From UHGV virus genome UHGV-1351772: a stretch of DNA of 64,000 nucleotides, one strand, 5' to 3'. Position 1 is the stretch's first letter, and each line of letters starts with the position of its first letter. Both the position numbers and the translations under genes were made by a program. Source of the stretch: a virus. This document shows positions 10,110 through 38,361 of this stretch, in pieces. Under the pieces are notes generated by a model. The model worked only from the letters and a program-made list of their open reading frames with translations, had not been told where the DNA came from and searched no databases.

Positions 10110-10136
10110 AGGATAATATCTATCTCACTTATTTTA
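10110..10136. promoter_or_regulatory. conserved palindromic AT-rich promoter/operator motif (copy a)
   Basis: taggataatatctatctcacttatttt sits between divergent starts at 10082 (-) and 10146 (+); core AGATA-A-TATCT palindrome shared with copies at 23740, 23820, 31621 and 39521. Confidence 0.55.
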
Positions 10137-13645: not shown

Positions 13646-15358
13646 TTATTGATTAAACCATGCTACTTCTTCGCATTTCTTTCTGTTTTGAATTAACAGA
13701 AATTCTGCTAACATGTTCTGAAGTCGCGGATGAGGTGAATAGTCCAACATCACTGTCCCACACCGTAACATTCTGGCTGCTTCCGGTGTTGCCCTGAGAT
13801 TGAAGTTGAACGGTGCAATATGTTCACGAACCAACAAGCTGAGAGAATCCTTCAATGTTGATTGTTCGTAAGTATTACGATGCTTACGGTATGCTTGTGG
13901 ATAATATCTATCCGTTTTTATTTTAATCTCATTATCGATTGGCTCGATAGGATACCCGCCATTTAGCGGTGCCCGGATCATTTCACAACTTAACAACTGT
14001 GCAATCTCAGGCATTCCGTAATAGATGTAAACGGCTTGGGATATACCCATCGCGTTCTTAAACGCTTCTGCGTCGATTTCCTTGTATGTACGACGATCTG
14101 CAAATCGGTGCATCACTGCCGCCACCAACCATTCGTAGAGTTCGTAGAAAGGATATTGATGGTTAATGTTGATGGAATCTATCAACACTTTCACATCAGC
14201 GGGAGCAATATCGAGATTCAAAGCACGCACCGCACGACGATAGTCATTAAAGAATTCTTGAGTACGAACGAATTCCTTCATTGGTGCTTTAGTCCGAGCT
14301 TGAACCAGGTCAATCGACGAAGTTTTCCCCTTCTCGCCGTTGAACATGATTTTCTCAGGATTCGCTTTTAGCATCACGTTTTGACCGGAAATTTTTCCCG
14401 CGAAGCCCGTTTCAATTTCTTGCCGAATATTGAAATACATCCCCGCCACGATGTTGTTTTCAACCATCGTACCTGGTGGTAGTTCGGCACCGATTAACTT
14501 CATCGCAATTAAACGGATAACGGCGAACGCTATGATGTATTCCTCTACCATATCCGTACCGTAGCCGCAGATAGATGCCAGGACGGTAAGGTTTGCAGTA
14601 TTAGGTCCTTTACTCCCCCCGTCCTGAACTTTCGAAATCACCGACACTAAAAACTCACGCAACTTTGTAATGGCTGGCAGTGTAGCAATCTCGGTATCAG
14701 ACAACAGTTCCATGCAGTAGGTCAGGTTATAAACACTTTTGCGCTTCGACTCAACAGAAGCACGTGTTGCAGGAAAAGCGTCCAAAATCAAGAATACGGG
14801 AATAAACGGTTTTGTCATCAAAGACAAAATCACCAATTCGTAATAATCTTGTACGATATACGTCATCTCTTTTGGATAATTCGACGACATCTCTTCGTAC
14901 GTTTCGTGGACGTTTTGAGGAATCCACACCGAACCGTGTGGATAAAGCTGGCGGAATCTATCTGCGTGATGAAATTTAGCAATTCTCGCGACGAGCGTGG
15001 GGACGTGTTCACGAATAACTTCTGGGGGTTCATTAGCTAACAACTCTAATTCTTCGTAAACTGAAAACAGTTCGCTTTTCTCTTCAGGTGTTAAAGTTGA
15101 CCAATAACGCTCGATTTCCATGAACATGATTTTATCGTGCGTTACGATCTGTCCGAAACTATCGCGTACGTCTGGCACATTCACGTCTTTACGTCCATTT
15201 CGGAAACCATTAAACGCGACCTCTTTTTCGCCGTACTTTATCACTAAACGGTCACGATTCTTTTCAATGCGCATTTTAAAATCTCCAGGAATAACATAGT
15301 CGTCCACTAAGATAAAATCTATCTCAGATAACTTCGACTGTATTCTACACACATACAC
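13646..15358 (-). CDS. hypothetical protein (570 aa)
   Basis: Long minus-strand ORF in operon context; no motif recognised. Confidence 0.55.
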   Translation of the reverse strand: MYVCRIQSKLSEIDFILVDDYVIPGDFKMRIEKNRDRLVIKYGEKEVAFNGFRNGRKDVNVPDVRDSFGQIVTHDKIMFMEIERYWSTLTPEEKSELFSVYEELELLANEPPEVIREHVPTLVARIAKFHHADRFRQLYPHGSVWIPQNVHETYEEMSSNYPKEMTYIVQDYYELVILSLMTKPFIPVFLILDAFPATRASVESKRKSVYNLTYCMELLSDTEIATLPAITKLREFLVSVISKVQDGGSKGPNTANLTVLASICGYGTDMVEEYIIAFAVIRLIAMKLIGAELPPGTMVENNIVAGMYFNIRQEIETGFAGKISGQNVMLKANPEKIMFNGEKGKTSSIDLVQARTKAPMKEFVRTQEFFNDYRRAVRALNLDIAPADVKVLIDSININHQYPFYELYEWLVAAVMHRFADRRTYKEIDAEAFKNAMGISQAVYIYYGMPEIAQLLSCEMIRAPLNGGYPIEPIDNEIKIKTDRYYPQAYRKHRNTYEQSTLKDSLSLLVREHIAPFNFNLRATPEAARMLRCGTVMLDYSPHPRLQNMLAEFLLIQNRKKCEEVAWFNQ

Positions 15359-20445: not shown

Positions 20446-21759
20446 ATCTGTCAGTACCGCTGAGATGAACAATGTCTGAATAGAAAGTTGAACCAATGTT
20501 GGGTTACGCAGAACTTCCAACATTAAGCCGAATCCGCCGGGGGATTCTTTAATCAACTCATTAATAATTTCATGTACCAACGGTACATACTGCATTGCCG
20601 CAAATGCAATGATGCGCTCACATTGTCGAGGTGTATAATCACGTCGACCTAACTTGTTCTCAATGTGAACACTCGCCAACGGAACCAACCAACGCCAAGG
20701 CGCAATAACTTTCAACGCATCATGAGGTTCAGAGATAGGAGAGATAGTCACACGTCCGCCCCACGGTACGTGTGTTGACCCGAGTTTTGCCCGATAGAAC
20801 CCAGGTTTACCTTCCATCACTTCCTGACGATGGTCAATATAGAAATACGCAAGCTGTCGATTCGCTTTGATCGCACGACGAATAATAAATCGTGGTTCGA
20901 TACGGCGTGCATTCGTGTACAACAACGCCACATTTTTTACTGCGTCGATAGCGCTGGTATAAACCGGATCGATAAAAATACCTTGTCGGCGCTCCTCCGT
21001 AACGATCAGTTTTGATGAAATAATCGGAAGGTGTCTTGGAAAGAATGAGAACGATTGTTCCTGAAAGAACTCACGCCATTCTAAGCGCACGCGCTCACTC
21101 TCATAACGGTTATTTTTCGTTGGTGGATAAATCTCCTTCCAAGCTTCCGGAGACGTAAGGATATTAAAGACGGTTCGATGGTGGTCGATAAAGTTTCGAA
21201 TTCCCCGTTCGAAGCCATGTTCGCCGAGTATTCTTTTCACCACGCGAGCACGTGTTCCCTCGTCCTTTTCTGGATGGTAGTACGGATCGATTAGCCACAG
21301 CAGTAAATCAGACCCGCGTTCTACCGTCACTTTGTTACGATTAAATTTTTTCAGCTTAGAGCCAAAGAAGGCATTAAAGAGAGACCAAAAACGTGGATTG
21401 ATAAAGTTACCCATCTCATCGGGAGCGCGTAACCAGACATCAGACGTAATCCGATGTTCAGAAACAACATGTCCGCAATGTGGGCAACGAAGCCCAAGAT
21501 TATAACGATGGGTAATAGGTGATTCGCAGGTCAGACTGCAAATAGGAGCCGAGTTGAGTGTTTCATCAACGATTCGGTTTTGGAGTATTTGGTTAATCAT
21601 CTCCGACGCTTCGATGGTATCCATCGTTGCAGCAACGTCATTGATAATAATCGGTGGTTTGTAGCCTTTTTCCTCCGCTTCTTGTATACAGTCACGTAAC
21701 ATCTTGTCGTGACTAATTAGTCGCCCCGAAATCCCGTAATATTCTAGTTTATGTTCCAC
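20260..21759 (-). CDS. multisubunit RNA polymerase beta-prime subunit, N-terminal part (set A), exon 1; last ~55 codons are probably intron read-through
   Basis: Cys cluster CSLTCES...CPHCGH (zinc ribbon), GKPGFYRAKLGSTHVPWGGRVTISPI matching [27 protein letters not shown], and VLRNPTLVQLSIQTLF matching VLLNRAPTLHRLGIQAF; homology stops ~25 codons before the expected NADFDGD. Confidence 0.6.
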   Translation of the reverse strand: MEHKLEYYGISGRLISHDKMLRDCIQEAEEKGYKPPIIINDVAATMDTIEASEMINQILQNRIVDETLNSAPICSLTCESPITHRYNLGLRCPHCGHVVSEHRITSDVWLRAPDEMGNFINPRFWSLFNAFFGSKLKKFNRNKVTVERGSDLLLWLIDPYYHPEKDEGTRARVVKRILGEHGFERGIRNFIDHHRTVFNILTSPEAWKEIYPPTKNNRYESERVRLEWREFFQEQSFSFFPRHLPIISSKLIVTEERRQGIFIDPVYTSAIDAVKNVALLYTNARRIEPRFIIRRAIKANRQLAYFYIDHRQEVMEGKPGFYRAKLGSTHVPWGGRVTISPISEPHDALKVIAPWRWLVPLASVHIENKLGRRDYTPRQCERIIAFAAMQYVPLVHEIINELIKESPGGFGLMLEVLRNPTLVQLSIQTLFISAVLTDVTQCSLRISDRVIKAPNAKHWPTRRETSSAYPSNCWKPLKLTIPTGWRKSETIRKITYANQ

Positions 21760-21770
21760 GCCGAATCCTC

Positions 21771-21814
21771 AACAAAAAAAGAGAGGGAAGGGACAGGGGG
21801 TTTTCCCCTGTCCC
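21771..21814 (-). terminator. strong intrinsic terminator
   Basis: gggacagggg-(g)tttt-cccctgtccc hairpin followed on the minus strand by CTCTCTTTTTTTGTT, directly after the stop of the 615-aa gene. Confidence 0.7.
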
Positions 21815-21843
21815 TCAACTACTGCTTACTACTTACCAACTTA

Positions 21844-23691
21844 TTAGAAAGTCGGACGCCAGTCAGTTGCAGCGAAGGACATACCGAAATCGCTACCAAA
21901 TGCGTTAGGACCGCTACCAGACAGCGCGAAGTTCTCATTACCCGTGTTAACAAACACAGAGTGAGTGAGGCTGTTCGCTGCGGTAACACCATTCACCTGG
22001 AAGTTGCAGTTTTCAGTAATGTATTCCACCAGTGCTTTACCAAACAGCGGATTGATCGCCAGGTCAGACGCTTCACCCGTTACCTGCGGCTGTTTGCTAC
22101 CGAACATGGACGCAGCCATTTTCAGCAGGTACAGACGCTGGTCACGCGCATTCAGATAGCGGTGAGAGTAGGACTGTGCACTGATGTAGTCGATCGCATC
22201 GCGTTGGTTATCACCCACTTTAGTCAGAGCGGAAACCAAGTCCATATCCTGGAAGCTGCGTTTCTGGCTGTTGCTGAAATACTGACCAGAGATGGTCGGG
22301 CAACCGGCAATAACAACGTGTTTGCACTCGAAGTTGGTGACATTGCCCAGCAGTGCTTTGAAGCGAGTGCTGAACTTAGTCGCGCCGTTGCTGGCCATGT
22401 TATCCAGGATATTGAACAGGGTGTACAGTGCGTTGGTGTTACCCATCCCGATTTCGCTCAGGAGAGTAGACAGGCCACCGATACCGTTACCTGCACGATG
22501 GTTCACCACCAGGGCCGCAGTCGGGTTAGCGAAGGTGTCCAGGCATTTCTCGATAACTTCACGGTTACCGTCGATTTTGCTCAGGTCAGGTTTTTCGCTG
22601 CCCCATTCTACATACTCCAGAACGCGGGAGAAGCGGCGATCGGTTTTGTTCAGCGACTGCATGAAACGTTCACGCCAGCCACCAATAGTGGCGATTTGTG
22701 CGAACGCGGCCAGTTCAATCAGCTGACGCTCGATAGGTGCCATTGCCCCAGAGGACTGAGAATCCATCAGGGAAACAACCACTTCGGCTTCCAGCTGACG
22801 CAGGTCCTGAGTACCGTTAGTCAGGGTTTGAGGTTTACCTTTATGGCGGAGGTTGATGTAACCAACACCTGCAACGCTCGGATAATTCTGGAGGCGTTCA
22901 GAAGAGAACAGCGTCGGGTTATTATCGTTGTTGCCAGTGCGAGTGTGGTCAACCACAACCATCAGGTCAGCACGTTGTGCAGAACCGTTAACGTCAGTTA
23001 CAGAACCTTCTTCAACTACGCTGACTTGCGCGGTGAAGCGATCAGAACGGGTCATTTTCAGGTAGCCCAGGTAGCCGGAATGACGACCGAAGATACCCAA
23101 TGCAATCTGGCCCATGAGCTGGTTAGCCCATTCTTCGTTCATGGTTTTACCCAGTTCCGGTACGCAGTTCATTACCATGAACTGTACGCTTGGCAGATTG
23201 TGCTGAGTTGCAATCTGGTTAGTGATGTTGTTCATCACACCTTCTTGACTGAACAGCTGCGCCAGGGTGTAGTAGTTTTCTTTACCGTTGATTTCGTAGA
23301 AACGGATGGACTGGCCATGTTCAAAGAACAGGATACCATAGAGCCATTCGTTATGGTTATCGCCGGACGGACCAGCCACGTATGCAGCAGAACCCATTTC
23401 AGAGTTGATGCCGTCAATAACACCCCAACGGAAGTTACGCAGGTATGTGTTCTTCTCCGCCATCTTCTCAATCAGGCTAGTGAACTGAGAAGCAGTGGAC
23501 ACGAAAGACATGTATCCGAAAGCTTTATCGAAAGTAGAGATGTTTTTAGACATCCCACCAAAAGCGTTGGCCGCATTGGTATTATCCACAGTAGCAGCTC
23601 CCGCGCCACCGAAAGACGGAATTGGATCTGCAGCGGAACCAGCAGCACCAGTCACAACGTCGTTTTGATTGTCAATAAACTCTTTAGCCAT
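21844..23691 (-). CDS. abundant 615-aa protein: candidate chimallin (phage-nucleus shell protein); alternative is major capsid protein
   Basis: Strong optimal-codon bias (ggt, cgt, ctg, aac, ttc), two tandem promoter motifs upstream and a strong terminator downstream; ~67 kDa with Gly/Ala/Ser-rich N- and C-terminal segments; directly upstream of the beta-prime N gene, as chimallin is in phiKZ (recalled synteny). Confidence 0.45.
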   Translation of the reverse strand: MAKEFIDNQNDVVTGAAGSAADPIPSFGGAGAATVDNTNAANAFGGMSKNISTFDKAFGYMSFVSTASQFTSLIEKMAEKNTYLRNFRWGVIDGINSEMGSAAYVAGPSGDNHNEWLYGILFFEHGQSIRFYEINGKENYYTLAQLFSQEGVMNNITNQIATQHNLPSVQFMVMNCVPELGKTMNEEWANQLMGQIALGIFGRHSGYLGYLKMTRSDRFTAQVSVVEEGSVTDVNGSAQRADLMVVVDHTRTGNNDNNPTLFSSERLQNYPSVAGVGYINLRHKGKPQTLTNGTQDLRQLEAEVVVSLMDSQSSGAMAPIERQLIELAAFAQIATIGGWRERFMQSLNKTDRRFSRVLEYVEWGSEKPDLSKIDGNREVIEKCLDTFANPTAALVVNHRAGNGIGGLSTLLSEIGMGNTNALYTLFNILDNMASNGATKFSTRFKALLGNVTNFECKHVVIAGCPTISGQYFSNSQKRSFQDMDLVSALTKVGDNQRDAIDYISAQSYSHRYLNARDQRLYLLKMAASMFGSKQPQVTGEASDLAINPLFGKALVEYITENCNFQVNGVTAANSLTHSVFVNTGNENFALSGSGPNAFGSDFGMSFAATDWRPTF

Positions 23692-23739
23692 TTTACTTAA
23701 TCCTTATAAGGTTTAATACAATTGTAGTGTTGGTTCACG

Positions 23740-23765
23740 TAGATAATATCTAGCTAAGATATTTT
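23740..23765. promoter_or_regulatory. conserved palindromic promoter motif (copy b1)
   Basis: tagataatatctagctaagatatttt in the divergent region between 23691 (-) and 23900 (+). Confidence 0.55.
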
Positions 23766-23819
23766 AGAATACACGTAAAACACACATAGCTTAAAATGAT
23801 TAACTACCGAACCATCACA

Positions 23820-23845
23820 TAGATAATATCTTTCTCAGATATTTT
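23820..23845. promoter_or_regulatory. conserved palindromic promoter motif (copy b2)
   Basis: tagataatatctttctcagatatttt, a second copy 80 bp from b1 with 22 of 26 positions identical. Confidence 0.55.
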
Positions 23846-23899
23846 TCAATGTGAGTGAGACTGTGACCGTTTCCTATGTGTAACCCCAAGGAGTAAGTC

Positions 23900-24961
23900 A
23901 TGTTCAGTCAAGCCGAGTTAAACCAAGCAGCCATAAAGGGTAAATTCGAAGACCCTTCCGCTATACAATTGGTCAGTGCCGTAAAAAATAATAATCAGCG
24001 CATTCGCAACTATTTAGAGTCCATTCAAACCCGTGTTGTTTCAGGCCATCTGGTACTCAAAATCTTAGCGGCTATCGGATATGCGGGTGAACCCAGCTAC
24101 GAAGAGATCGAGTGGGCATGTCGACGCAAGCTTTCCGATATCGGTAATGCGCTACACCTAACTTCTGTGGGGGAGTATGGTCAAGTTTTCAACGGGATCT
24201 TTATCGAGGGGCAAGATGAGATTATTTCACTCGTCGCACGTCCTATTGATCCTGAACTGTCTTTTCGTGACTACACACCTGCAGTTTATCTTTATCACGA
24301 GTACACGAATCTTAACTGGAGTCTCGGGAACGGCAAACCCCGTGGCATCAGTATTATTGAAATTAATCTGGTTGCACTGCTATGGCAATACGTTCTTGCA
24401 GAACAATACTACCGAACGCAATCCGAACCGATTAACCGTGTAGTTTACGCGCAACGACACATCATTTACCGTATGTTACCCAGCTACATGAATATTGCTT
24501 TTTTAAATATTCATCGCGCTGTCGCAACGGGTAAAGAAGTCGAACCCGAAACGCCACTTCGTGTTATCCCTACACCACCTTTGCGTGAACTTTCAATTAA
24601 ACACGCAACGCAAGTTTGTAAAGCACTTCGTGCAGGTAAACCTTTACCTGGTGTGGTCATGGCACACATTCCACAGTTCTTTGATGATCCGACACACCCT
24701 ACCACTGCGGTAGACCGCATCCTTTTTAAAGACCCAGGCTCAACCATTCAAGGTAGTTGGCATCGAAACATCGTGAACTGGTATTGGGCGTTGTTCTGCT
24801 TACAGTTCGACAATTCGAGTATGAGCAAATACAAATCCAATTTAATGGTGCGTATAGCCAGATTCGAAGATGCGAAGATATTGGAAAAACTTACACGGTC
24901 GGCTAGAAATTACTATCGACACGAGTTAATTTTACCATTATATCACGCATTAGAAAATTAA
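23900..24961 (+). CDS. hypothetical protein (353 aa)
   Basis: Plus-strand ORF with ATG at 23900 preceded by aaggag; ends at a terminator hairpin. Confidence 0.55.
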   Translation: MFSQAELNQAAIKGKFEDPSAIQLVSAVKNNNQRIRNYLESIQTRVVSGHLVLKILAAIGYAGEPSYEEIEWACRRKLSDIGNALHLTSVGEYGQVFNGIFIEGQDEIISLVARPIDPELSFRDYTPAVYLYHEYTNLNWSLGNGKPRGISIIEINLVALLWQYVLAEQYYRTQSEPINRVVYAQRHIIYRMLPSYMNIAFLNIHRAVATGKEVEPETPLRVIPTPPLRELSIKHATQVCKALRAGKPLPGVVMAHIPQFFDDPTHPTTAVDRILFKDPGSTIQGSWHRNIVNWYWALFCLQFDNSSMSKYKSNLMVRIARFEDAKILEKLTRSARNYYRHELILPLYHALEN

Positions 24962-25193: not shown

Positions 25194-27506
25194 TCATTCG
25201 TCGTCAAAAACCTCTTCTTCGTCTTCATCTTCTTCGTCATCCCCTGCCCTCTCCGATTTCTTAACGTATTGTACTTCCGCCAATTCCTTGTACAATTCGT
25301 CTTTCTCCTCGGCCTTGTCGTAGAAATCTGACAACAACCTCATCCTGTTTTTATCCATCATGAACACACCTAAGCATTCGAGAATGTGATAGTACGGTTC
25401 AACCGTAGAGAAAGCAGTACGACGGATATCTGCAATATCGATCAGTTCTTTAGGGATACCATAGTTTTCCACCAAATGTTCTGGCAGAATCAGTGTTTTA
25501 TATTTACGGAAGTTTGTCTCCTCAAACCACGCCGATGCACCGTTCTTGATAATCGGATCTTCGATACTGTCAATCCACTCTTTAATCTTCGTTTTGTTTT
25601 CCAATGTTACCGGAAGCTTCACTGCATCATACGGCGGTTCTTCCAAATAACCAAACTTCGGACCAAAGATAGCATTATACATTCGGTGGTAATGGTAGTT
25701 CTTCTCATCCTTCTCGTTATAAGCGCTACGTTCCTTGATGTTCGTCGTTTTCAAATACCCTGGATTCCCAGAACGAATAGAATCCATAATCGTGTGTTCG
25801 ATTTGGGCAACCTTTTCCAGCAACGGAATGATTTCGATCTGATCGCCACGGGCAACAACTTCACATAACCCTTTGATGGTGTTCTTAAACTCCTTCATGA
25901 TAATCGGAGGAATGTTAGACGTACGTAAAGACACACCTTTTACTTCCAGCTCGGGATCTTTTTTCAGCTGGCCTTCCTGTCCAGTAATCAATGAGAAGTA
26001 ATGTTTTGCTTTAGTGGTTAATGCAAACGAATCAAACTTAAATTCATTCTTCATTGCATACAGGAACAAACGCTCCTTCGCCACACCGATGTTTGCTGAC
26101 ATACTCGCCATCAAGTGCCGTAAGTGCTGTGTCGCAATATAGATCATCGCATTGGAAACACGGGTAGCTACCTCACCGTAATGTTTACCGGTGTACCAGA
26201 TTGCCCACCATTGCGCAGTCATCATTGTAGAGTCAGTATCAGATACTACCCCTACACGACGAACCACATCCGGCATTCGAGCAATATTGATTGGTAAGTT
26301 TTTCGTGGTAAGAATATTGCGAATCAGTAGCGCGTATTTACCGATCGTTTTCTGTAAGAACACTGCGGAACGAATTAATTCTTTATACCCATCCTGCTGT
26401 TCCCACGGCAACGGTTTTTTATTACCATCAAGTTTCTTAACGTCACTGAACGCTTTACCCATCGGTACTACGTCGGTACGGAACTGCGAGATAATAATCT
26501 GCATATCACCATCGATGGTCTTCTCAGCAGCAACCCAGTCCGTATCAGTCCAGCCTTCGGTATCAACACGCACATCTGGGGTAATTAATGCGCCAATAAA
26601 GTCGCGCATGAATTTATCGTTGTATTTAGCCAGGTGGAAAAAATCACCCATGTAAACAAACGCCGCTCGCGTCAACGCTGATACATTACTAACGTAATGC
26701 TCAACGAACTCCATCCCCTCTTCGTTCTTAAAGTAGAAATCGGCAGAATAATGAATAACCTCCATCACCTCTTCTACCGACGGATAATGAAGCTCATACG
26801 TCTCCATACATTTCTTAAAGCTATTCCAATCGGTTAAAGTACCGATAGATAAGAAATGATCGATAATGCGTGACGGGGTTTCGTAATGTCTATTACCTCC
26901 TAATAAACGCTCATTTCCAGCATTGCCGAACGAAGTTGCAGTACGACAAGTGGACGTCAGTGTGGAGTGTGAGGACTGATTAAAAAGGATCGTGAACGGG
27001 GAGGAAAATGCGCCCGACATACCGTTGTTCAGCGTCTTGACCGCATTCTGTTCGTTCTTTTTGTTGATATTTAATACTACATTGCCCGCTGCTGCTGCTG
27101 CAAACATTTCCTTTTTTACCGCATCACGTTTCGCTACGTTAGCTGCTGTGAATTCAGACAACTTAGAACGTTTGACATGTTCGGGCAAATAAAAAGTTAA
27201 CGAAGGTGCGGAGATAATCTGTTTGTCAATGACGGTTTTAAATAACTTATCGACGGTAGTGTATTTTTCCTCACGATCGCCCGTTTTCTGATTACGCACC
27301 CACATCTTACACACGGGTGATTCGGTTGCTAACTCACCGCCAGGTGCAATAAGAGCATCAACTTCCTGACGACAAAACTCTAAAGGGTATTTTTGTGCGG
27401 TCACGTTATGAATGTATAACGCGACTTGTTCGCGGTAGGCATCGTTGACATCGATATCACGATGGTATTCATCTACCGTTAAACGAAAAGGAGAAATGTA
27501 TTCCAC
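25194..27506 (-). CDS. family-B-like DNA polymerase, polymerase-domain protein (tentative)
   Basis: VVSDTDS (motif C YGDTDS-like), KTLNNGMSGAF (motif B-like KxxxNSxYG), later KAKHY (KKRY-like), in that order; strongly acidic C-terminal tail DDEEDEDEEEVFDDE; no exonuclease motifs seen. Confidence 0.4.
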   Translation of the reverse strand: MEYISPFRLTVDEYHRDIDVNDAYREQVALYIHNVTAQKYPLEFCRQEVDALIAPGGELATESPVCKMWVRNQKTGDREEKYTTVDKLFKTVIDKQIISAPSLTFYLPEHVKRSKLSEFTAANVAKRDAVKKEMFAAAAAGNVVLNINKKNEQNAVKTLNNGMSGAFSSPFTILFNQSSHSTLTSTCRTATSFGNAGNERLLGGNRHYETPSRIIDHFLSIGTLTDWNSFKKCMETYELHYPSVEEVMEVIHYSADFYFKNEEGMEFVEHYVSNVSALTRAAFVYMGDFFHLAKYNDKFMRDFIGALITPDVRVDTEGWTDTDWVAAEKTIDGDMQIIISQFRTDVVPMGKAFSDVKKLDGNKKPLPWEQQDGYKELIRSAVFLQKTIGKYALLIRNILTTKNLPINIARMPDVVRRVGVVSDTDSTMMTAQWWAIWYTGKHYGEVATRVSNAMIYIATQHLRHLMASMSANIGVAKERLFLYAMKNEFKFDSFALTTKAKHYFSLITGQEGQLKKDPELEVKGVSLRTSNIPPIIMKEFKNTIKGLCEVVARGDQIEIIPLLEKVAQIEHTIMDSIRSGNPGYLKTTNIKERSAYNEKDEKNYHYHRMYNAIFGPKFGYLEEPPYDAVKLPVTLENKTKIKEWIDSIEDPIIKNGASAWFEETNFRKYKTLILPEHLVENYGIPKELIDIADIRRTAFSTVEPYYHILECLGVFMMDKNRMRLLSDFYDKAEEKDELYKELAEVQYVKKSERAGDDEEDEDEEEVFDDE

Positions 27507-27559
27507 GGCTGACCTCTAAAAAGGCAGTTTAACTCGGCTATAAGGAGGGTGGGTAACGT

Positions 27560-27600
27560 GAAAAAAAAAGAAAGAAGTATGTCCTCTCCGAAGAGAGGAC
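27560..27600 (-). terminator. intrinsic terminator
   Basis: gtcctctc-cgaa-gagaggac hairpin followed on the minus strand by a long T-run, after the stop of 27609..28028. Confidence 0.65.
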
Positions 27601-27608
27601 ATTTTCGA

Positions 27609-28028
27609 TTAACCCGCAGCGTTTTCAATGATCTCGATTTCCACATCATTAAACCCGCGTGCTGCCAACGCAGCTTCCAGGTCTTCTTTCTCTTGCTTGT
27701 TATCGAGCTGTACAACAAAACGTGCTGTCAAACTGGTAATTACCCTTACTTCGCGTACCCACGCATCAGCCGCAACGCCTACCTTACCTGTAGAATCGCG
27801 GAACAGCATATAGTTATACGCAGTGAGGTCATTTGAAGGTTGTGCTACTAACGACGAATAAATATTCTTCTGGATAGCAGCCAGATCTTCGCCTGCGGTT
27901 TTTGCAAACTCATAGCCGACTTTAGACGCGAGTACACGCACTCGCGTTTCATTACCTTTTAACGGAGTATCGTAAACAATATTTACGATAGACCCTGGTT
28001 CAATGTTACTAAAATCAAACATTATCAC
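27609..28028 (-). CDS. hypothetical protein (139 aa)
   Basis: Last gene of a nine-gene minus-strand cassette of small ORFs. Confidence 0.5.
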   Translation of the reverse strand: MIMFDFSNIEPGSIVNIVYDTPLKGNETRVRVLASKVGYEFAKTAGEDLAAIQKNIYSSLVAQPSNDLTAYNYMLFRDSTGKVGVAADAWVREVRVITSLTARFVVQLDNKQEKEDLEAALAARGFNDVEIEIIENAAG

Positions 28029-28629
28029 TCCTCAACATTGTGATGTCCAGATGGAACGTAGCGTAAACACCTGAAACGGTACCTAAGTCATCATGTAACG
28101 ATAAGTTTAAACACAGGCTCTCAATACCACATTTGTGTGCGGTACGAAAGAGCTGGATAGCGGGTTCGCAATCATTCTCGTAAATCTGGAGAATATTATC
28201 GCGAAGAATTTCTATCGCGTGTTCACGCAACACGTCCCAAGAAGACCCGCCTTGTATTTTACATAACTCATAGATTTCCAGGAGTGGTCGCATATCCTCA
28301 ATCATGTCTTCCGTATAACTGGTTTCCATCATTGAGTTAAATTCCCACTGCCGGTATTCGTCGTTTAACCGTTTCAGGTAACTGTCTAACTCTTTCAGTT
28401 CCCTTTTATTGCCAGGAAAGTTACACGCTTTCGATAACTCGCTAATCGCGGTATTGATATATCGCGTTGCTTCATCCGTCGTCTCTATCGTTGTAGGAAA
28501 AGACACTCGCATACAGCGAAAGCGCATTAGGGTTCTTACTAACTTATCTTTATAGAAATCGCCATCTGTGGCGTATTCCAGTAACCCTAAGTTCGGACGG
28601 ATGAAATGATCACCCCGTACTTTGTACAT
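28015..28629 (-). CDS. hypothetical protein (204 aa)
   Basis: Small-gene cassette member. Confidence 0.5.
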   Translation of the reverse strand: MYKVRGDHFIRPNLGLLEYATDGDFYKDKLVRTLMRFRCMRVSFPTTIETTDEATRYINTAISELSKACNFPGNKRELKELDSYLKRLNDEYRQWEFNSMMETSYTEDMIEDMRPLLEIYELCKIQGGSSWDVLREHAIEILRDNILQIYENDCEPAIQLFRTAHKCGIESLCLNLSLHDDLGTVSGVYATFHLDITMLRSDNV

Positions 28630-29097
28630 TCAAACCTCTATGCAAATAAAACCACTCCCAATCTCATTCATAAACAAAGATACTTTGGTTTTCTTCGATC
28701 CTTCTTCCGGCGTTAACCCAGACTGTTGCCAGAGCGTTTCGACCAGATTACGGATACGAAAATAGTCCACATCCTTTTCTATTTCAAACTGCAACAAAGA
28801 ATGGGAGAATATACGCACTTCATCGACTGAGAACAGTTGTGCTAGTTGTGTGAAAATAAATTGGTGATTGGGTGGGATGAACGTCAGAAACGTTTCACCC
28901 TCACCCAAACGACGCACCACCGAACGTACAGATTCCTCTGCATACTTCGCCAGGAACCAGTACGCCATATACGGTGCTACCGAACCAATATCCGCATTCT
29001 CAACCCGCGAATGTAGGCGTTCCGGGAGATACACTTCCGAAATTTCCATAAACAGTTTCATAGCAGACCAACACCAGATCGCTGAATGTTTCCCCAA
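28630..29097 (-). CDS. hypothetical protein (start uncertain)
   Basis: Small-gene cassette member; overlaps the upstream ORF by ~100 bp in the track, so the start is probably internal. Confidence 0.45.
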   Translation of the reverse strand: MGKHSAIWCWSAMKLFMEISEVYLPERLHSRVENADIGSVAPYMAYWFLAKYAEESVRSVVRRLGEGETFLTFIPPNHQFIFTQLAQLFSVDEVRIFSHSLLQFEIEKDVDYFRIRNLVETLWQQSGLTPEEGSKKTKVSLFMNEIGSGFICIEV

Positions 29098-29506
29098 TCC
29101 AACGTGTCAATGAACCAGGAAACATCGAATTAATTAACGCAGCCAATCCTGTCTGCGACAGAAGTTCACGCTGTAGAATATCCGCCGCGTGACAAATTGC
29201 CGCCAGATGACTGTCTTCATCACCTATCGTAGAAAGGAAGGTGATACTTTCTACAGTTTCGCCTGGAATAGCATTTTCGTCGTATGCAGTGACAGTAAGC
29301 AGTTCTTTTAACAACTCAGGATTATGGGACTTCGCCGCGATAATGTATGCGGTACCGAAGTCTTCATAGAGTCGCCGAATATCGTGCTCGAAAACGTCTA
29401 AACGATTCGTTTCTAAAACGTCCACCAACACGTCACGTACTGCTTCGTAAAAACGGGTTCTACCGTAACTTTGTACCTCTTGCGCGACGTAATAAACATA
29501 CTGCAT
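29000..29506 (-). CDS. hypothetical protein (168 aa)
   Basis: Small-gene cassette member. Confidence 0.45.
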   Translation of the reverse strand: MQYVYYVAQEVQSYGRTRFYEAVRDVLVDVLETNRLDVFEHDIRRLYEDFGTAYIIAAKSHNPELLKELLTVTAYDENAIPGETVESITFLSTIGDEDSHLAAICHAADILQRELLSQTGLAALINSMFPGSLTRWIGETFSDLVLVCYETVYGNFGSVSPGTPTFAG

Positions 29507-30015
29507 TATAAAACCTTCCCAGCCAGATTACCCAGCAACATTTCTGTAAGCGTTTGTATTTTTGGGGTGATTTGTTGTAACAAAGCGGGTTCCTCGTATT
29601 CAGGATACTTCACCTCCTCGTACCTTACAAGGAACTCTACCGCGCCAGGCTTTTGTGCACAATAACGTGCACCTATCCACTGGCCGTATCGTGTAAACCA
29701 GTACGGCTCTGTCGACACCGCTGTCACAAAAGCCTTCGCCACTTCCTGCGTCGCCTTTACATACTCCAACGCACGCTCACCCTCCAACAAGACGCCATGG
29801 CTGTTAAGTTCCCGTCCAATAAAATCAAACGTTTCTTGTAACGCGTAACGATCTAACCGCGGGAAGTACCCCGTTAACGCGTACTCCCAGACATAATTCA
29901 GTACCGTATTTAAATCGGTACAGACTTCGCGCAATATCGCATTCGGATCAAACTCCGTCAGCGGTCCGCAAATAAATTGATAGTCAGGTATGATAAAATA
30001 ACTCTCACGCACCAT
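29506..30015 (-). CDS. hypothetical protein (169 aa)
   Basis: Small-gene cassette member. Confidence 0.5.
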   Translation of the reverse strand: MVRESYFIIPDYQFICGPLTEFDPNAILREVCTDLNTVLNYVWEYALTGYFPRLDRYALQETFDFIGRELNSHGVLLEGERALEYVKATQEVAKAFVTAVSTEPYWFTRYGQWIGARYCAQKPGAVEFLVRYEEVKYPEYEEPALLQQITPKIQTLTEMLLGNLAGKVL

Positions 30016-30412
30016 ACGCTACCCCTCCTGTTGTAAACATTCGCCAAACGCCAGAACCTGTGTGGAACAGAAGAAAACCTTCATTCGGTAAAACGACCAC
30101 TTCTTCTTCAAGTCGCGCCCATAACGACACTGAATTCAGAAGCTCAACTTCAATAACATGATTAATACAGTAACTGTTCGGACTCTCCGATTCTACAATC
30201 GGATACCGCCGAATAATGTCCGCAAACAGCTCACGTACTGTAAGTTCGTCGATGCAATACTTTCGACGTAACACCTCCAGCCTAACGAGCTGTTCTACGT
30301 AATAATCTACTGTATCCGAAACATCCAGGTATTGAAGATACGCGGCGCGTTTTATTACCTTCAGAATTTCTGCAGTTGTCCACGGAAACTCAATAAAGAT
30401 CGTCATAAACAT
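30005..30412 (-). CDS. hypothetical protein (135 aa)
   Basis: Small-gene cassette member. Confidence 0.5.
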   Translation of the reverse strand: MFMTIFIEFPWTTAEILKVIKRAAYLQYLDVSDTVDYYVEQLVRLEVLRRKYCIDELTVRELFADIIRRYPIVESESPNSYCINHVIEVELLNSVSLWARLEEEVVVLPNEGFLLFHTGSGVWRMFTTGGVAYGA

Positions 30413-30821
30413 CCGTTACCTTCTTTGGAATAAAACGAAGAAAATGTCCGTCTATCCGATAATAAAAACGCCACCCTTTGGGAGGAATGCCCATTTCCTC
30501 ACATAGAGCACCACGGACGTAAGATGTTATCAGACGAACATCTTCCTCTGTAGACCGAGGTCGATAAGACCGTACTATCGTTGCAGCACAGTTAGCATCC
30601 CACATTCCCGATTCCGTAAAATTAGGAATGAGATACTCCAGTAGGGACAGTATGACATATTTTAACTGTTCAGCATCTGTCCCTGAATACGATGACAACC
30701 TTTCGTCCGCGAGTATACGCTGGTACGCCTTATACGTCACGTGATCGAGTAAGGTAATCCGGATCGTATCTTTTATCCGGGAAACAGTTCCGGTAGTGGA
30801 TAAATCGGATATCTTCTCCAA
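30390..30821 (-). CDS. hypothetical protein (start uncertain)
   Basis: Small-gene cassette member; 92-bp overlap with the upstream ORF in the track. Confidence 0.45.
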   Translation of the reverse strand: MEKISDLSTTGTVSRIKDTIRITLLDHVTYKAYQRILADERLSSYSGTDAEQLKYVILSLLEYLIPNFTESGMWDANCAATIVRSYRPRSTEEDVRLITSYVRGALCEEMGIPPKGWRFYYRIDGHFLRFIPKKVTDVYDDLY

Positions 30822-31269
30822 GACGAAGCTCCATCATCGCAATTTGACCTCTCGGTGTAAGGTGTGGTTCAATCTCAACCGTTAAATAAGGATTGAAAAC
30901 TTCCCCGACAGCCTCAAACCCTTCCCTAACTAAAGATTCGACCTCACACAACAAACCGTCGTAACAGTCATCAAACGCCAACCCCAGGAGATATGTCTTC
31001 GAACGTAGGACACAAACCTCACGTTCCTGTTCTGTTGCAACTTCACCAAACGCTGAACGATGGACAAGAACCTGACGACACTTCATGGTTTTAGGTGGTT
31101 TTACACGACCATCTGCAACCAGTAAATTCGTTAGGGTGTAAGCATCCGTGAACTGGTCTAAAAAATCCGGCAGCCGACTATTCGGCATTCTGGGAATTGA
31201 GTGAAAAATATCCTCTAATGCTGTGTGTATCAGTTGTACAGTAACGGCCTGTTTTTCTTTTACTGTCAT
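30730..31269 (-). CDS. hypothetical protein (start refined to ATG at 31269)
   Basis: Longest ORF extends to 31356, but the ATG at 31269 (MTVKEKQ...) forms an ATGA overlap with the stop of the upstream gene, typical coupling in this genome. Confidence 0.45.
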   Translation of the reverse strand: MTVKEKQAVTVQLIHTALEDIFHSIPRMPNSRLPDFLDQFTDAYTLTNLLVADGRVKPPKTMKCRQVLVHRSAFGEVATEQEREVCVLRSKTYLLGLAFDDCYDGLLCEVESLVREGFEAVGEVFNPYLTVEIEPHLTPRGQIAMMELRLGEDIRFIHYRNCFPDKRYDPDYLTRSRDV

Positions 31270-31589
31270 CCGCAAAGCGGAAGCGTAGGATGTTTTTTCC
31301 ATCGCTGCCCAGAAGTTATGATAAACTGTAGCTGGATTGAAGTGTATTTTGACCACGTTTGCACAACTCCATTTTTATAAGAGAAAGGACTACTGTGGTC
31401 ACGACCCAACGCACTGATCATAAACCACGCATCCGAACCAAAATATCTTTCTGCCACCTTCAACCGATCTCCAGGTAAATTGTGAACACCCGGAAAAATC
31501 AGTTCTTGTATCGCTTCTAAAATCTCCTCAGGACGATAGCGAACTGAATGGCTAGAGTCTAGCAGAAAACCAAATAGCACGCGCGTCAT
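31266..31589 (-). CDS. hypothetical protein (107 aa), first gene of the small-gene cassette
   Basis: Start 32 bp downstream of promoter motif c with SD aaggag. Confidence 0.5.
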   Translation of the reverse strand: MTRVLFGFLLDSSHSVRYRPEEILEAIQELIFPGVHNLPGDRLKVAERYFGSDAWFMISALGRDHSSPFSYKNGVVQTWSKYTSIQLQFIITSGQRWKKHPTLPLCG

Positions 31590-31620
31590 TAACGTTAATA
31601 CTCCTTTAAGGGAACATCAT

Positions 31621-31647
31621 TAAGATAATATCTATACAAAAAATATT
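31621..31647. promoter_or_regulatory. conserved palindromic promoter motif (copy c)
   Basis: taagataatatctatacaaaaaatatt upstream of the small-gene cassette. Confidence 0.55.
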
Positions 31648-31755
31648 CGAGTATAGTGCGCACAGGAAGGGCACAGAGTGTATTTTTTAGTAAGGCAGGG
31701 TTGGACTATTACCCGATCCTATGAACCGTTTTACAGAGCCTATTAGGAGCACGCA

Positions 31756-32568
31756 ATGAGCGTCATCGACTACTGTCTACGGAGAATACGTCGCGAAATT
31801 CCCGAACCGATTCTTCGTGCGGCTTTTGTACCTCAAAATCTTCGCAACTTTGGTGTTGCCAGTTCGCTGGACAATGAAATCACTCAAAAGGTTTTTCGAG
31901 AATACTTAATTCCTGAAGTCTCTCGTTTAGGTCAGTACACAGAGATCGATTTACAGGGTCTCCCTTTTGAAAATGACACACAGGATTACTATTCACGCAT
32001 CTATTACCTGGACGACATGAAAACCGGTGGACGTCCAATACTTGATGTCCATATGGCCGTCACGCCTGTGGCAGGACAAGCCTATACCTTGCCGCCTGCC
32101 GGGTCTTATTTAGATGGTGCAACGTCTGGTGTACTAGCCTCTACCCAATTTGTTGTGGATAGTCAATCTGCAATGCCACGCATTTCTTCACCTGAGGTGA
32201 AAAAGCTTGGACCTAACACGATTAAAATCAAAGACCCTGGCATGTTCGTTTATGCGACCAAACTCCAGGTTAAATTCGAGATGTCTGAAGACTTGAACGA
32301 AATCAAACCGGCCTTCTATCCGGTTGTTGCAGATATGGCACTCTACGCTACAAAACAATATATCTACAACAAAATGATTTTCGATATGGATTCTGGTCGT
32401 CTCGAAAACGGTATGGAGTTCGGTGCGTTTAAAAACGTCATCGAGGGCTATTCCGATGCGGGTGAAATGTTCAACGACAATTTACCACGTCTACAACGCG
32501 CAATGGTACACAACGACGACTCGGGCAACCGTTACAACTACATGTCAGGTGGTCGCTTCAAATCGTAA
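31756..32568 (+). CDS. hypothetical protein (270 aa)
   Basis: Plus-strand ORF ending at a bidirectional terminator. Confidence 0.55.
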   Translation: MSVIDYCLRRIRREIPEPILRAAFVPQNLRNFGVASSLDNEITQKVFREYLIPEVSRLGQYTEIDLQGLPFENDTQDYYSRIYYLDDMKTGGRPILDVHMAVTPVAGQAYTLPPAGSYLDGATSGVLASTQFVVDSQSAMPRISSPEVKKLGPNTIKIKDPGMFVYATKLQVKFEMSEDLNEIKPAFYPVVADMALYATKQYIYNKMIFDMDSGRLENGMEFGAFKNVIEGYSDAGEMFNDNLPRLQRAMVHNDDSGNRYNYMSGGRFKS

Positions 32569-33521: not shown

Positions 33522-33962
33522 TTATAGTAGCTCTACGGCATGACGCTCGTGGTAAAGCTCCGCCAACTGTTTCGTTTTAATCCGTAATTCGCCTCGGTCG
33601 TAAACTAATACCCGACCTGCGCCGTTTGTTCCTAACTCTGTGTAAAGTGCTAACCCGTACCGTCTTACAAATTCAATAGCTGGAAACGTAAATTCTTCGT
33701 CATCACAACGAAACACCAACATACACCACGGGCTCGGGTTTAAGTGCTTACGTTCTTTCCCATCCGCCCACCGTAAACTAAATTCATTTCGATTACGATT
33801 CAGCACCCGCTCAACAAATCGTTCTACTAACTTACCAGTCGGTCCATCTTTGGGTAGTGCTTGCCACACCGAGAAACGGCGTGACAAAAACGGTCGAATC
33901 ACCGCTGCTTCATCAAACGAATACCCCAAACACATCAAACCCTCAATGGCATCTATTTTCAT
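33522..33962 (-). CDS. hypothetical protein (146 aa)
   Basis: Minus-strand ORF; a weaker promoter-motif copy (acatctatctctaaaaattt, 34021..34040) lies upstream. Confidence 0.5.
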   Translation of the reverse strand: MKIDAIEGLMCLGYSFDEAAVIRPFLSRRFSVWQALPKDGPTGKLVERFVERVLNRNRNEFSLRWADGKERKHLNPSPWCMLVFRCDDEEFTFPAIEFVRRYGLALYTELGTNGAGRVLVYDRGELRIKTKQLAELYHERHAVELL

Positions 33963-34835: not shown

Positions 34836-35379
34836 TTCTGTTACCTCGTACTGTTACTACTACTCGTTCTGTTGTACGTCGCTATACCCCGACGTGTGGG
34901 TTAATGGGACGCGTTGACGTCTGATGAGGCGCAGCAGGCAGTGGCAGCAATGACAGCAAGGGCAGCAATGGTACAAACGCCAACGCGAATAAAAAACGCT
35001 ACTGATCAAATAAAACGACAAGGAAAGTATGAGAAACAAAGACCAGTACCGTCGAGTTAACGCGTAACTCTCAATTCACATTACAGGGTATTCACGTTGC
35101 ACTTAGGGGAAATACCCAGTAATTAAATTCTTGGTGGGAGTAGGTGGGAGGATACCCTCCCACCGTACCACCGTTTCGGCAGTCGTGCTACCAGGACCCT
35201 ACGGCCCTAAACGTAAGTCCGAACTTAATCGGTAGGTGTTTACACGTTTTTAAGGAGCTTTCTACCCGTGAGCAAGAGCAGAAAATATCAGAGCAGGCGT
35301 AACTCAGTTGAAGGCTGACGGGAAAATCTACCCAACATACGTCTGTTCTAATTAGGTTAGTGGGCCGAAGCCCACTGTT

Positions 35380-35680: not shown

Positions 35681-35756
35681 TGGCGGGGGTGGGAAGTTTC
35701 GAACTCCCAACCTTCGGTTTTGGAGACCGCTGCACCACCAATTGTGCTACACCCCC
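35681..35756 (-). tRNA. tRNA-Trp (anticodon CCA), 76 nt with encoded CCA
   Basis: Hand-folded cloverleaf from the reverse complement: acceptor GGGGGTG/CACCCCC, D-stem GCAC/GTGC, anticodon loop CUCCAAA (U33, CCA, A37), T-arm GGGAG-TTCGAAA-CTTCC; anticodon and T arms nearly identical to E. coli tRNA-Trp. Confidence 0.8.
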
Positions 35757-37518: not shown

Positions 37519-37680
37519 TTTTATATATATTTATATATAATATATATTATATATAATAATTATTATATTAATAAATATATTAATATATTTATTTAAATAA
37601 ATAATTAAATAATACCTAAAGGTATTATTATTTTGATCCTAAAGGAATAATATATTTATAAATAAATATATTATACTATA
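37519..37680. other. ~160-bp almost pure A+T core: candidate DNA-unwinding element of a replication origin
   Basis: Only a handful of G/C across 37519..37680, with internal inverted repeat aataatacc-taaa-ggtattatt, inside a 1.65-kb gene-free island. Confidence 0.5.
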
Positions 37681-37700
37681 CGCGCGTGCGTACGCACGCG
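37681..37700. repeat. alternating purine-pyrimidine CG palindrome (cruciform/Z-DNA-prone)
   Basis: cgcgcgtgcgtacgcacgcg: perfect 18-bp palindrome cgcgtgcgtacgcacgcg inside a fully alternating 20-mer, abutting the AT core; a shorter gatcgcgcgcg sits on the other flank (37508..37518). Confidence 0.6.
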
Positions 37701-38361
37701 TATAAGGAAGAGATCTTGAGATCAGATTTTTGAGAGAGTTAAAAATTTAAGATCGATCCGAGAGACTTAGTGTCTCTCGAAGAGTATTAAAAAATTTAAA
37801 AGATCAAAAAACCAAAGCTAGAGAACTACTCAACCTGAATCTTCAGTGTGTGAAGATTCAGTAAGTTGATCAATCCAGCTGATCCGCTAGTACGCGAAGC
37901 GTGAATGTTTTTTTGATCGTCGCGGCGGCCGGTCCGCCGACCCGAGGGTGGGGTGGAACTGGTCGAGGGGAATGCCCCTCAGGCGCTCTCAATCGCGCTG
38001 TAACGAGTTAAACGGGGTTCTGGTACCCAAGTGTACCCCTTGAGGAGATTTTTGCGTCAAAATGCGTTCTAGAGCGTTTTACGATGGGGTGGGTTTTCGA
38101 CCCACTCAGGGATAGGGGTTGGCGTGACAGCTCGAACGACAAAATCGTGGTTTCATGGCGTTGAGTGAAAATAAATTCAAAACCCACAACCAAAAACACC
38201 CTCAAATTCTTCGTAGGAAGCTCTCTGACGAGATAAACGTGGGTAAGGGGTACGAACGTACCGCCTGGAAAGAAAAATGCGTTAGAATCGCTCTCAGCGC
38301 GTTTTTGATTTTTGGGCAAAAAAATAAAACGGGGGAGACTTCGGTCTCCCCAGAATATTTT

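Follow-up and report, generated by a model that had tools for sequence, protein, structure and literature searches.

Background

In phiKZ, RAY, Psa21 and Serratia phage 2050HW, which represent the four other chimallivirus clades examined, the slot that extends from the head-to-tail adaptor gene (on the opposite strand) to the gene of the divergent family-B DNA polymerase contains 6-10 small, co-oriented and clade-specific genes, the last of which is an SH3DP gene. In phiKZ, two genes of this slot, orf47 and orf48, located directly upstream of the gene of gp49, encode Imp2 and Imp4, which are cargo-specific nuclear import factors (bioRxiv 10.1101/2024.03.27.586873) conserved only within the Pseudomonas clade (bioRxiv 10.1101/2024.03.27.586873). 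The SPN3US-like clade of the same nucleus-forming jumbo phages (chimalliviruses) has been described as the PhuZ-less 'phuzzywuzzyviruses', and Asesino was found to form a chimallin nucleus (PMC11724907). This PhuZ-less clade amounts to a quarter of the known chimalliviruses and includes the genetically tractable SPN3US.

The present analysis concerns UHGV virus genome UHGV-1351772, a stretch of 64,000 nucleotides (hereafter the window), in which the adaptor-to-polymerase slot is filled by an operon of nine genes, g9 to g17, located at 27609-31589 on the minus strand. It revealed that this operon is not a new type of system: it is orthologous to a conserved operon already known as sequence and uncharacterised. 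Its last gene, g17, belongs to the family of the phiKZ baseplate protein gp49. The eight other genes, g9 to g16, may, tentatively, encode intracellular accessory or adaptor factors of the nucleus-based infection cycle.

Origin of the window

Judging from its sequence, the window phage is an SPN3US-like chimallivirus of the PhuZ-less clade. The DNA polymerase gene that adjoins the operon (25194-27506, minus strand) matches Pfam divDNApol (E 4.5e-278), the divergent family-B enzyme of phiKZ-like jumbo phages, and its product is 79% identical to SPN3US gp18 and 78% identical to the polymerases of the Erwinia phages Asesino, Stratton and phiEaH2, the next relatives being at about 37%. A megablast search of the region against a phage genome collection gave no nucleotide-level match, and the relatives were reached by protein-level searches. 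Near-identical DNA is present in a metagenome scaffold of 217 kb (about 98% identical), in a Logan assembly and in a 100-kb contig of a Salmonella enterica Braenderup assembly (83-96% identity). Because of the polymerase identities and of this near-identical DNA, including the Braenderup contig, the window is attributed to an undescribed SPN3US-like phage whose host is probably Salmonella. By the same comparisons, it represents a lineage separate from SPN3US, with close relatives only in the Braenderup assembly and in metagenomes.

The nine-gene operon

The operon consists of nine open reading frames (ORFs) encoding proteins of 107-208 amino acids (aa). The ratio of nonsynonymous to synonymous substitution rates is given as dN/dS and the isoelectric point as pI.

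31266-31589, minus strand: g9 (o9), 107 aa, basic (pI 9.2), orthologue of SPN3US gp9 (54% identical), phrog_9874 (E 6e-42), dN/dS 0.00
30730-31356, minus strand: g10 (o8), 208 aa, orthologue of SPN3US gp10, phrog_8359 (E 5e-73 over residues 1-207), dN/dS 0.04
30390-30821, minus strand: g11 (o7), at most 143 aa, orthologue of SPN3US gp11, phrog_8134 (E 2.5e-45, from residue 22)
30005-30412, minus strand: g12 (o6), 135 aa (133 aa from the ATG at 30406), orthologue of SPN3US gp12 (33% identical), phrog_9510 (E 2.6e-39), dN/dS 0.09
29506-30015, minus strand: g13 (o5), 169 aa, best conserved of the eight unknowns, predicted alpha/beta fold with no solved relative
29000-29506, minus strand: g14 (o4), 168 aa, acidic (pI 4.4), variable middle region, phrog_8126 (E 1.5e-38), 34% identical to SPN3US gp14
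28630-29061, minus strand: g15 (o3), 143 aa, orthologue of SPN3US gp15, phrog_9694 (E 8.5e-42, from residue 13 of the long ORF)
28015-28629, minus strand: g16 (o2), 204 aa, fastest-evolving gene of the operon, phrog_8007 (E 2.6e-35), 28% identical to SPN3US gp16
27609-28022, minus strand: g17 (o1), 137 aa, Pfam SH3DP PF20287 (E 1e-30), orthologue of SPN3US gp17

All junctions are devoid of spacer, consecutive genes being either overlapping or directly adjacent. The overlap reaches 91 nt for g9/g10, 14-92 nt for g10/g11 (according to the start chosen for g11), 17-23 nt for g11/g12, 11 nt for g12/g13, 62 nt for g14/g15 (produced by a shift of the g14 stop) and 8 nt for g16/g17; g13 and g14 meet at TAATG, and g15 and g16 are adjacent (TGAATG). 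These overlapping stops and starts would couple translation and would thus deliver the nine products in fixed proportions. The initial annotation had reported nine minus-strand ORFs of these sizes at these coordinates, packed with stop/start overlaps between a promoter motif and a strong terminator; both descriptions were confirmed from the sequence, and the whole forms a discrete unit.

The nine genes are one-to-one collinear orthologues of SPN3US gp9-gp17, with 28-58% aa identity (BLASTP) compared to 79% for the polymerase. Each of them matches its own PHROG family (E 1e-35 to 5e-73), and g9-g16 give full-length hidden Markov model (HMM) matches to the orthologous groups of gp9-gp16, which are, in order, PHROGs 9874, 8359, 8134, 9510, 8024, 8126, 9694 and 8007. 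When compared with L018, the relative from Salmonella Braenderup (about 90% identical), all nine genes show dN/dS values of 0.00-0.12 (0.03 for the polymerase), indicating purifying selection. Since each ORF has its own PHROG family, a collinear SPN3US orthologue and a signature of purifying selection, these nine ORFs are, on sequence grounds, real genes that form one operon.

A tblastn search with the nine concatenated products matched 63 phage records, of which 61 cover more than the last gene and 51 cover at least 80% of the query in order. The operon is present in the genera Seoulvirus, Erskinevirus, Machinavirus, Wellingtonvirus and Derbicusvirus. In phages of other clades, the tblastn and profile searches detected g17 alone, so that g9-g16 are clade-restricted. 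All ten relatives examined carry the nine genes between the same flanking genes. The cassette does not display the variable presence or order expected of accessory genes: the same order in five genera and the purifying selection are at odds with a variable accessory island.

The last gene of the operon and the flanking adaptor gene

The product of g17 matches Pfam SH3DP (PF20287) with 106 bits for a cut-off of 25 (E 1e-30), the same model giving 127 bits (5e-37) for phiKZ gp49 and 121 bits (3e-35) for SPN3US gp17. It also matches PDB chain 11lx_V (E 1.9e-6), described as an 'SH3 fold domain-containing protein' and found in 28 copies over 2 entries. In the cryo-electron microscopy (cryo-EM) atlas of phiKZ (2026), 12 dimers of gp49 form the hexagonal inner ring HR1 of the baseplate (PMC13250141). 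SPN3US gp17 is represented by 19-21 spectra in virions and by zero in tailless particles (PMC5105663 Table S4). The sequence matches make g17 a member of the SH3DP / phiKZ gp49 baseplate-ring family and, by analogy with phiKZ gp49 and SPN3US gp17, its product would be a baseplate protein of the window phage. It resembles phiKZ gp49 in family model, length (137 vs 138 aa) and position upstream of the polymerase, whereas their pairwise similarity is weak (41% over 37 aa). The distance from g17 to the polymerase start is 102 nt, and the same arrangement is found in SPN3US, phiKZ, RAY and 2050HW. The anti-defence or host-takeover role first proposed is wrong for this gene, since its homologues have a virion function. 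Likewise, the initial statement that no product carries a recognisable motif holds for eight of the nine and fails for g17 (Pfam SH3DP).

The Pfam name of this family ('SH3 fold domain associated with phage DNA polymerases') is based on gene neighbourhood alone (PMC7824862), and Iyer et al. (2021) proposed the SH3 protein as a possible polymerase subunit (PMC7824862). From this name and from the position beside divDNApol, a neighbourhood conserved in every clade examined, one could read the cassette as a set of accessory subunits of the replisome. However, cryo-EM places the SH3DP protein in the phiKZ baseplate and the SPN3US orthologue is a tail-dependent virion protein. Because of this location, gene adjacency is the only specific link that is left with the polymerase, and the replisome reading has lost its main support. 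Furthermore, the cassette and the polymerase gene lie on either side of a conserved terminator, and two or three further genes intervene in Derbicusvirus. We therefore regard a replisome role as highly improbable. In broader terms, a family named after DNA polymerases includes a phiKZ baseplate protein.

At the other end of the operon, the divergent neighbour (31756-32568, plus strand, 270 aa) matches Pfam DUF7484 (E 1e-96), to which phiKZ gp42 and SPN3US gp8 also belong. In the phiKZ atlas, gp42 is the dodecameric head-to-tail adaptor (PMC13250141); DUF7484 thereby gains a function, that of head-to-tail adaptor.

Promoter, terminator and other signals

Two conserved signals delimit the operon.

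31624-31664, minus strand: promoter, made of a conserved block TGTGCGCACnATACTCGAA, then a T-run, then the core ATAGATATTATC (31635-31624)
27555-27602, minus strand: intrinsic terminator, with a 10-bp GC-rich stem and a UUCG loop (27602-27579), then a T-rich tail

The core ATAGATATTATC is matched exactly at 31624-31635, about 35 nt upstream of g9, whose Shine-Dalgarno sequence AAGGAG is located at 31606-31601. The window contains 4 exact copies of this core, all on the minus strand, and 24 matches with at most two mismatches compared to 4.65 expected, a number that none of 100 shuffles reached. Both the motif and its position upstream of g9 are kept in the 11 phages compared (11/11), and the intergenic region upstream of g9 stays at 98-100% identity even where, in a relative, the flanking genes have dropped to 91-96%. 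The same motif precedes chmA (23742-23753) and the non-virion RNA polymerase (nvRNAP) genes (10112-10123), namely 7845-10082 and 5746-7845, which are assigned to nvRNAP subunits by synteny with SPN3US gp34/gp35. The motif has the same distribution in SPN3US.

According to a review of the RNA polymerases encoded by jumbo phages, early promoters are the only ones recognisable by a conserved AT-rich motif, which is about 10 nt long and located near -10 (PMC7598289), and chmA of phiKZ has an early promoter (PMC8244752). Since the motif class also precedes chmA and the nvRNAP genes, and given this analogy with phiKZ, the 'early-type' label put on this promoter by the initial annotation is reasonable: the motif is real and common to these genes, and an early class is plausible for the operon, its timing being what we infer from phiKZ. 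The operon would be transcribed by the injected virion RNA polymerase from this conserved AT-rich early promoter and would end at the conserved terminator, which would make the polymerase gene a separate unit. The terminator hairpin, with its TTCG loop (TCCG in CR5) and T-run, follows g17 in all 11 phages.

Other candidate signals were observed in the region. No sigma-70-like site was found in the intergenic region upstream of g9. The best sigma-70-like match of a 10-kb scan (TGGACA-17-GATAAT, 10/12; 28021-28049, minus strand) lies inside g16, just upstream of the g17 start; as such sites number 9 overall compared to 18.8 expected, this match probably occurred by chance. One of the exact copies of ATAGATATTATC (13900-13911, minus strand) is located in the 3' part of a 570-aa ORF (13646-15358) and may act as an internal promoter, the next gene (11909-13615) beginning about 285 nt further downstream. 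The core is also present as two near-palindromic copies, TAGATAATATCTA, at 23739-23753 and 23819-23833, within the divergent region (23701-23899) that separates chmA (minus strand) from the gene of a gp21/phiKZ gp52-like head protein (23900-24961, plus strand); since its reverse complement is nearly the same sequence, the core could function in either direction. In the gap between the terminator and the polymerase gene (27507-27560, minus strand; core 27533-27545), a block TTTTTTCACG...(C/T)CTTATAGCnGAG is conserved in seven of ten relatives and absent in Derbicusvirus, and may be the polymerase's own promoter. The motif TCTTATAGCnGAG, conserved upstream of the polymerase gene, does not recur elsewhere in the window, and neither does this block. 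The octamer TATATTAC, taken as the phiKZ early consensus, was rejected: phiKZ gp43 is not preceded by an exact match to it, and the phiKZ locus as a whole shows no enrichment.

The products of g9-g16

Searches in Pfam, PHROG functional categories, NCBIfam and PADLOC assigned no function or domain to g9-g16. No match to a described anti-defence or defence family was obtained in Pfam, NCBIfam and PADLOC, which are general libraries and not ones dedicated to anti-CRISPR or anti-restriction proteins. SPN3US gp9-gp16 were not detected in mass spectrometry of virions (PMC5105663 Table S4). That g9-g16 encode non-virion proteins is well supported. Seven of these eight products are acidic or near-neutral (pI 4.4-6.1), the product of g9 being basic (pI 9.2). 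All of them diverge much faster than the polymerase, g16 being the fastest.

AlphaFold2 models, built on shallow alignments of four sequences each, gave alpha/beta folds for g13 (predicted local distance difference test, pLDDT, 77) and g16 (pLDDT 82, predicted template modelling score 0.78); the concatenated g15+g16 alignment recovered relatives of g16 only. The orthologue models of BFVD agree with them, with template modelling (TM) scores of 0.89 for g13 and 0.71-0.77 for g16. A Foldseek search of the g16 model against BFVD retrieved its own family only. The g13 model has weak BFVD matches with small proteins of other chimalliviruses (best TM 0.61-0.69, E 0.015), and its comparison with PDB structures gave nothing convincing. 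Profile searches of g13 and g15+g16 against PDB sequences gave nothing below E 0.18, and 19 relatives of g13 were found among 1.84 billion representative proteins. As modelled, the folds of g13 and g16 would have no known relatives outside their own families, that of g16 being clade-specific. Structure prediction followed by Foldseek, the check suggested in the initial annotation, thus provided folds for the two proteins on which it was run, g13 and g16, and no functional clue.

In L016 (Logan SRR21858525), g16 is present as an allele with 77% nucleotide identity, between flanks that are 97-100% identical (window 28042-28640). Its dS is 1.14 compared to 0.05-0.09 in the neighbouring genes, and the limits of the exchanged segment are those of the ORF. 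By this alignment, g16 was subject to a gene-precise allelic replacement in a near-identical relative. L018 is mosaic at other places, with 83% identity for g14, 88% for g13 and 72% for the gene 33522-33962. Mosaic recombination, as seen in these alignments, is general to the lineage and not specific to g16.

Some of these properties are those that would be expected if g9-g16 served host takeover or anti-defence early in infection, as initially suggested for the whole cassette, their products binding host factors or immune systems and inactivating them. The promoter is of early type; the products are small, mostly acidic or near-neutral, domain-free and non-virion; they evolve fast relative to the polymerase (28-58% vs 79% identity) and are limited to one clade; and the exchange of g16 for a 77%-identical allele in an otherwise 98%-identical phage fits contact with something variable. 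However, in typical anti-defence islands, presence/absence varies among related phages, and no such variation was found here, content and order being constant over five genera. Furthermore, short-range selection is purifying and not diversifying, the searches in Pfam, NCBIfam, PHROG functional categories and PADLOC gave no match, one of the nine genes (g17) is structural and mosaic recombination is lineage-wide. The anti-defence or host-takeover module thus obtained no positive support for the eight genes, besides being wrong for g17, and we consider such a role unlikely, although it ranks second.

Given the family of g17, one may also ask whether g9-g16 are non-structural assembly factors or chaperones of the tail or baseplate, co-expressed with g17. 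Their absence from mature virions is as expected for chaperones, the 8-nt overlap couples the translation of g17, a member of a baseplate-ring family, to that of g16, the divergent neighbour is the head-to-tail adaptor, and the eight genes are strictly co-conserved with g17 across the clade. However, the promoter class is common to chmA and the nvRNAP genes and not to clearly late genes, and the positional counterparts of phiKZ act in nuclear import. It should also be emphasized that virion and non-virion genes are interleaved across the region, and therefore adjacency is weak evidence. An assembly role is improbable, more so than host takeover.

A possible role of g9-g16 in the nucleus-based infection cycle

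The role that we place first for g9-g16, by analogy with phiKZ, is that of non-virion accessory or adaptor factors that work inside the cell during the nucleus-based infection cycle. At the phage nucleus or within it, these clade-specific proteins would serve as specificity factors or adaptors, and would parallel phiKZ Imp2 and Imp4 by their position and evolutionary behaviour, instead of being dispensable anti-defence cargo. Four points place this accessory or adaptor role first: gene content does not vary, selection is purifying, the promoter is common to chmA and the nvRNAP genes, and phiKZ offers a precedent at the same locus. The cassette occupies an Imp2/Imp4-like position, inside the slot and just upstream of the SH3DP gene. 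The weak structural matches of the g13 model in other chimalliviruses were also counted as support.

Several points weigh against it. The analogy with Imp2 and Imp4 does not extend beyond position and evolutionary pattern. The HMMs of g9-g16, derived from 11 phages, gave no significant match with the slot proteins of phiKZ, RAY, Psa21 and 2050HW, and a deeper HMM of g13, which includes 14 metagenomic relatives, found nothing significant among the same proteins. An hmmsearch for homology with phiKZ gp47/gp48 gave E values of at least 0.06 in a set of 53 proteins, and hhalign comparisons of g9-g16 with phiKZ gp43-48 and with the slot proteins of RAY, Psa21 and 2050HW reached probabilities of at most 8%. 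The fold searches of g13 and g16 in BFVD and PDB brought no functional clue. No localisation, timing or essentiality data were located for g9-g16 of any phage in the literature covered. Finally, one would not expect a baseplate gene to close an 'early' operon: either the promoter class is not purely early or g17 has an extra late start site. As a separate result, hhalign of the g9-g16 families among themselves revealed no paralogy.

Taking both sides together, the role of g9-g16 as accessory or adaptor factors is ranked ahead of host takeover, itself ahead of assembly and then of the replisome; none of these is demonstrated, and the first is possible rather than probable. The best explanation as a whole, which joins the operon structure and the role of g9-g16, is held slightly more firmly and stays tentative. 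If the accessory or adaptor role is true, this operon provides eight clade-core candidates for early nucleus-related functions.

A narrower hypothesis, also drawn from phiKZ, is that g9-g16 are the PhuZ-less clade's own factors of nuclear import specificity, i.e. counterparts of Imp2 and Imp4 that diverged past sequence recognition. They would then decide which phage and host proteins enter the nucleus, and g16, with its single-gene swap and its location beside the baseplate gene, would be a host-facing adaptor, as Imp4 is for host TopA. We view this as a long shot. If true, phages across the family would carry, between the adaptor and polymerase genes, a fast-evolving 'import specificity' locus.

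Gene starts and the dual-coding overlap of g9 and g10

The initial annotation considered several of the ORF starts to be over-extended. This proved right for g17, which starts at ATG 28022 and not at GTG 28028, and for g15, which starts at ATG 29061 and not at TTG 29097, every relative beginning with MKL there. By contrast, the comparison of 11 phages contradicts the proposed refinement of the g10 start to 31269. The g10 frame is open exactly 91 nt into g9 in 11/11 phages (overlap 31266-31356 in the window, minus strand), this stretch encodes a conserved N-terminal peptide of g10, VV[RK]IH..P..VH..FW....YA.ALRM, and the position of the start codon is identical in 11/11 phages (GTG in most of them, ATG in Parshik and in three Derbicusvirus phages). 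Because overlap, peptide and start codon are conserved in the 11 phages, GTG 31356 is favoured over 31269, and is most probably the start of g10 on this comparison. Both the GGAG and the start codon of g10 are located within the stretch that encodes the conserved g9 motif NGVVxTWS, and the dual-coding overlap keeps its length, both frames and the start position in phages that are only 25-55% identical. At its other end, g10 encodes a conserved C-terminal motif, GEDIRxIHYR.

For g11, the candidate starts are TTG 30821 (with GGAG 7 nt upstream), ATT 30758 and GTG 30743. The upstream frame is open and conserved in relatives, and the annotation of one close relative begins at the ATT position.

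The annotated starts of SPN3US gp10, Asesino gp27, Wellington gp20 and pEa_SNUABM_4 00025 are located downstream of the conserved start, and these genes look truncated; the annotation of SPN3US gp11 (99 aa) also looks truncated. This work thus corrects the record for g10 and g11, which are annotated too short in several reference genomes.

Other features of the window

The chmA gene of the window is the ORF 21844-23691 (minus strand), whose 615-aa product aligns with Asesino gp39 over its full length, with 50% identity. The latter was identified as ChmA, its formation of the nuclear shell having been shown by tagging with green fluorescent protein (PMC11724907). BLASTP of the window ChmA candidate against RAY ChmA was not significant, and the orthology was set via Asesino gp39. 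This protein belongs to phrog_8316 ('unknown function') and not to phrog_4795, the PHROG named nuclear shell protein. A 649-aa ORF antisense to chmA (21751-23700, plus strand), devoid of any PHROG match, is almost certainly a shadow ORF of chmA.

In RAY (L013 1863-2837) and 2050HW (L015 2077-3039), the slot opens with the gene of the tubulin PhuZ, which immediately follows the adaptor gene. In the PhuZ-less clade of the window, it is the nine-gene operon that begins at this position (intergenic region 31590-31755).

The window carries a single tRNA-Trp (CCA) gene (35681-35756, minus strand), near which two non-coding stretches are unusually long, 34836-35379 (544 nt) and 37557-38007 (451 nt).

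Comparison with known systems

The operon can be compared with three described systems. With the early host-takeover genes of phiKZ-like phages (Dip/gp37, the ribosome-binding gp14) and with anti-defence islands, it shares an early-type promoter and small, domain-free, clade-restricted proteins; it differs from them by the lack of homology, by its invariant content and order and by its structural member. The likeness is greater with phiKZ ORF043-ORF049, which occupy the same slot in the same orientation and also encode small clade-restricted proteins, with the SH3DP gene in last position. However, the eight upstream genes have no detectable homology with those of phiKZ, the number of genes differs, and the import function has been shown for phiKZ only. 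Finally, the operons of SPN3US, Asesino, phiEaH2, Machina, Wellington and CR5 have the same promoter motif, terminator and overlaps and the same flanking adaptor and polymerase genes as that of the window, although the operon proteins are only 28-58% identical between the window and SPN3US, compared to 79% for the polymerase.

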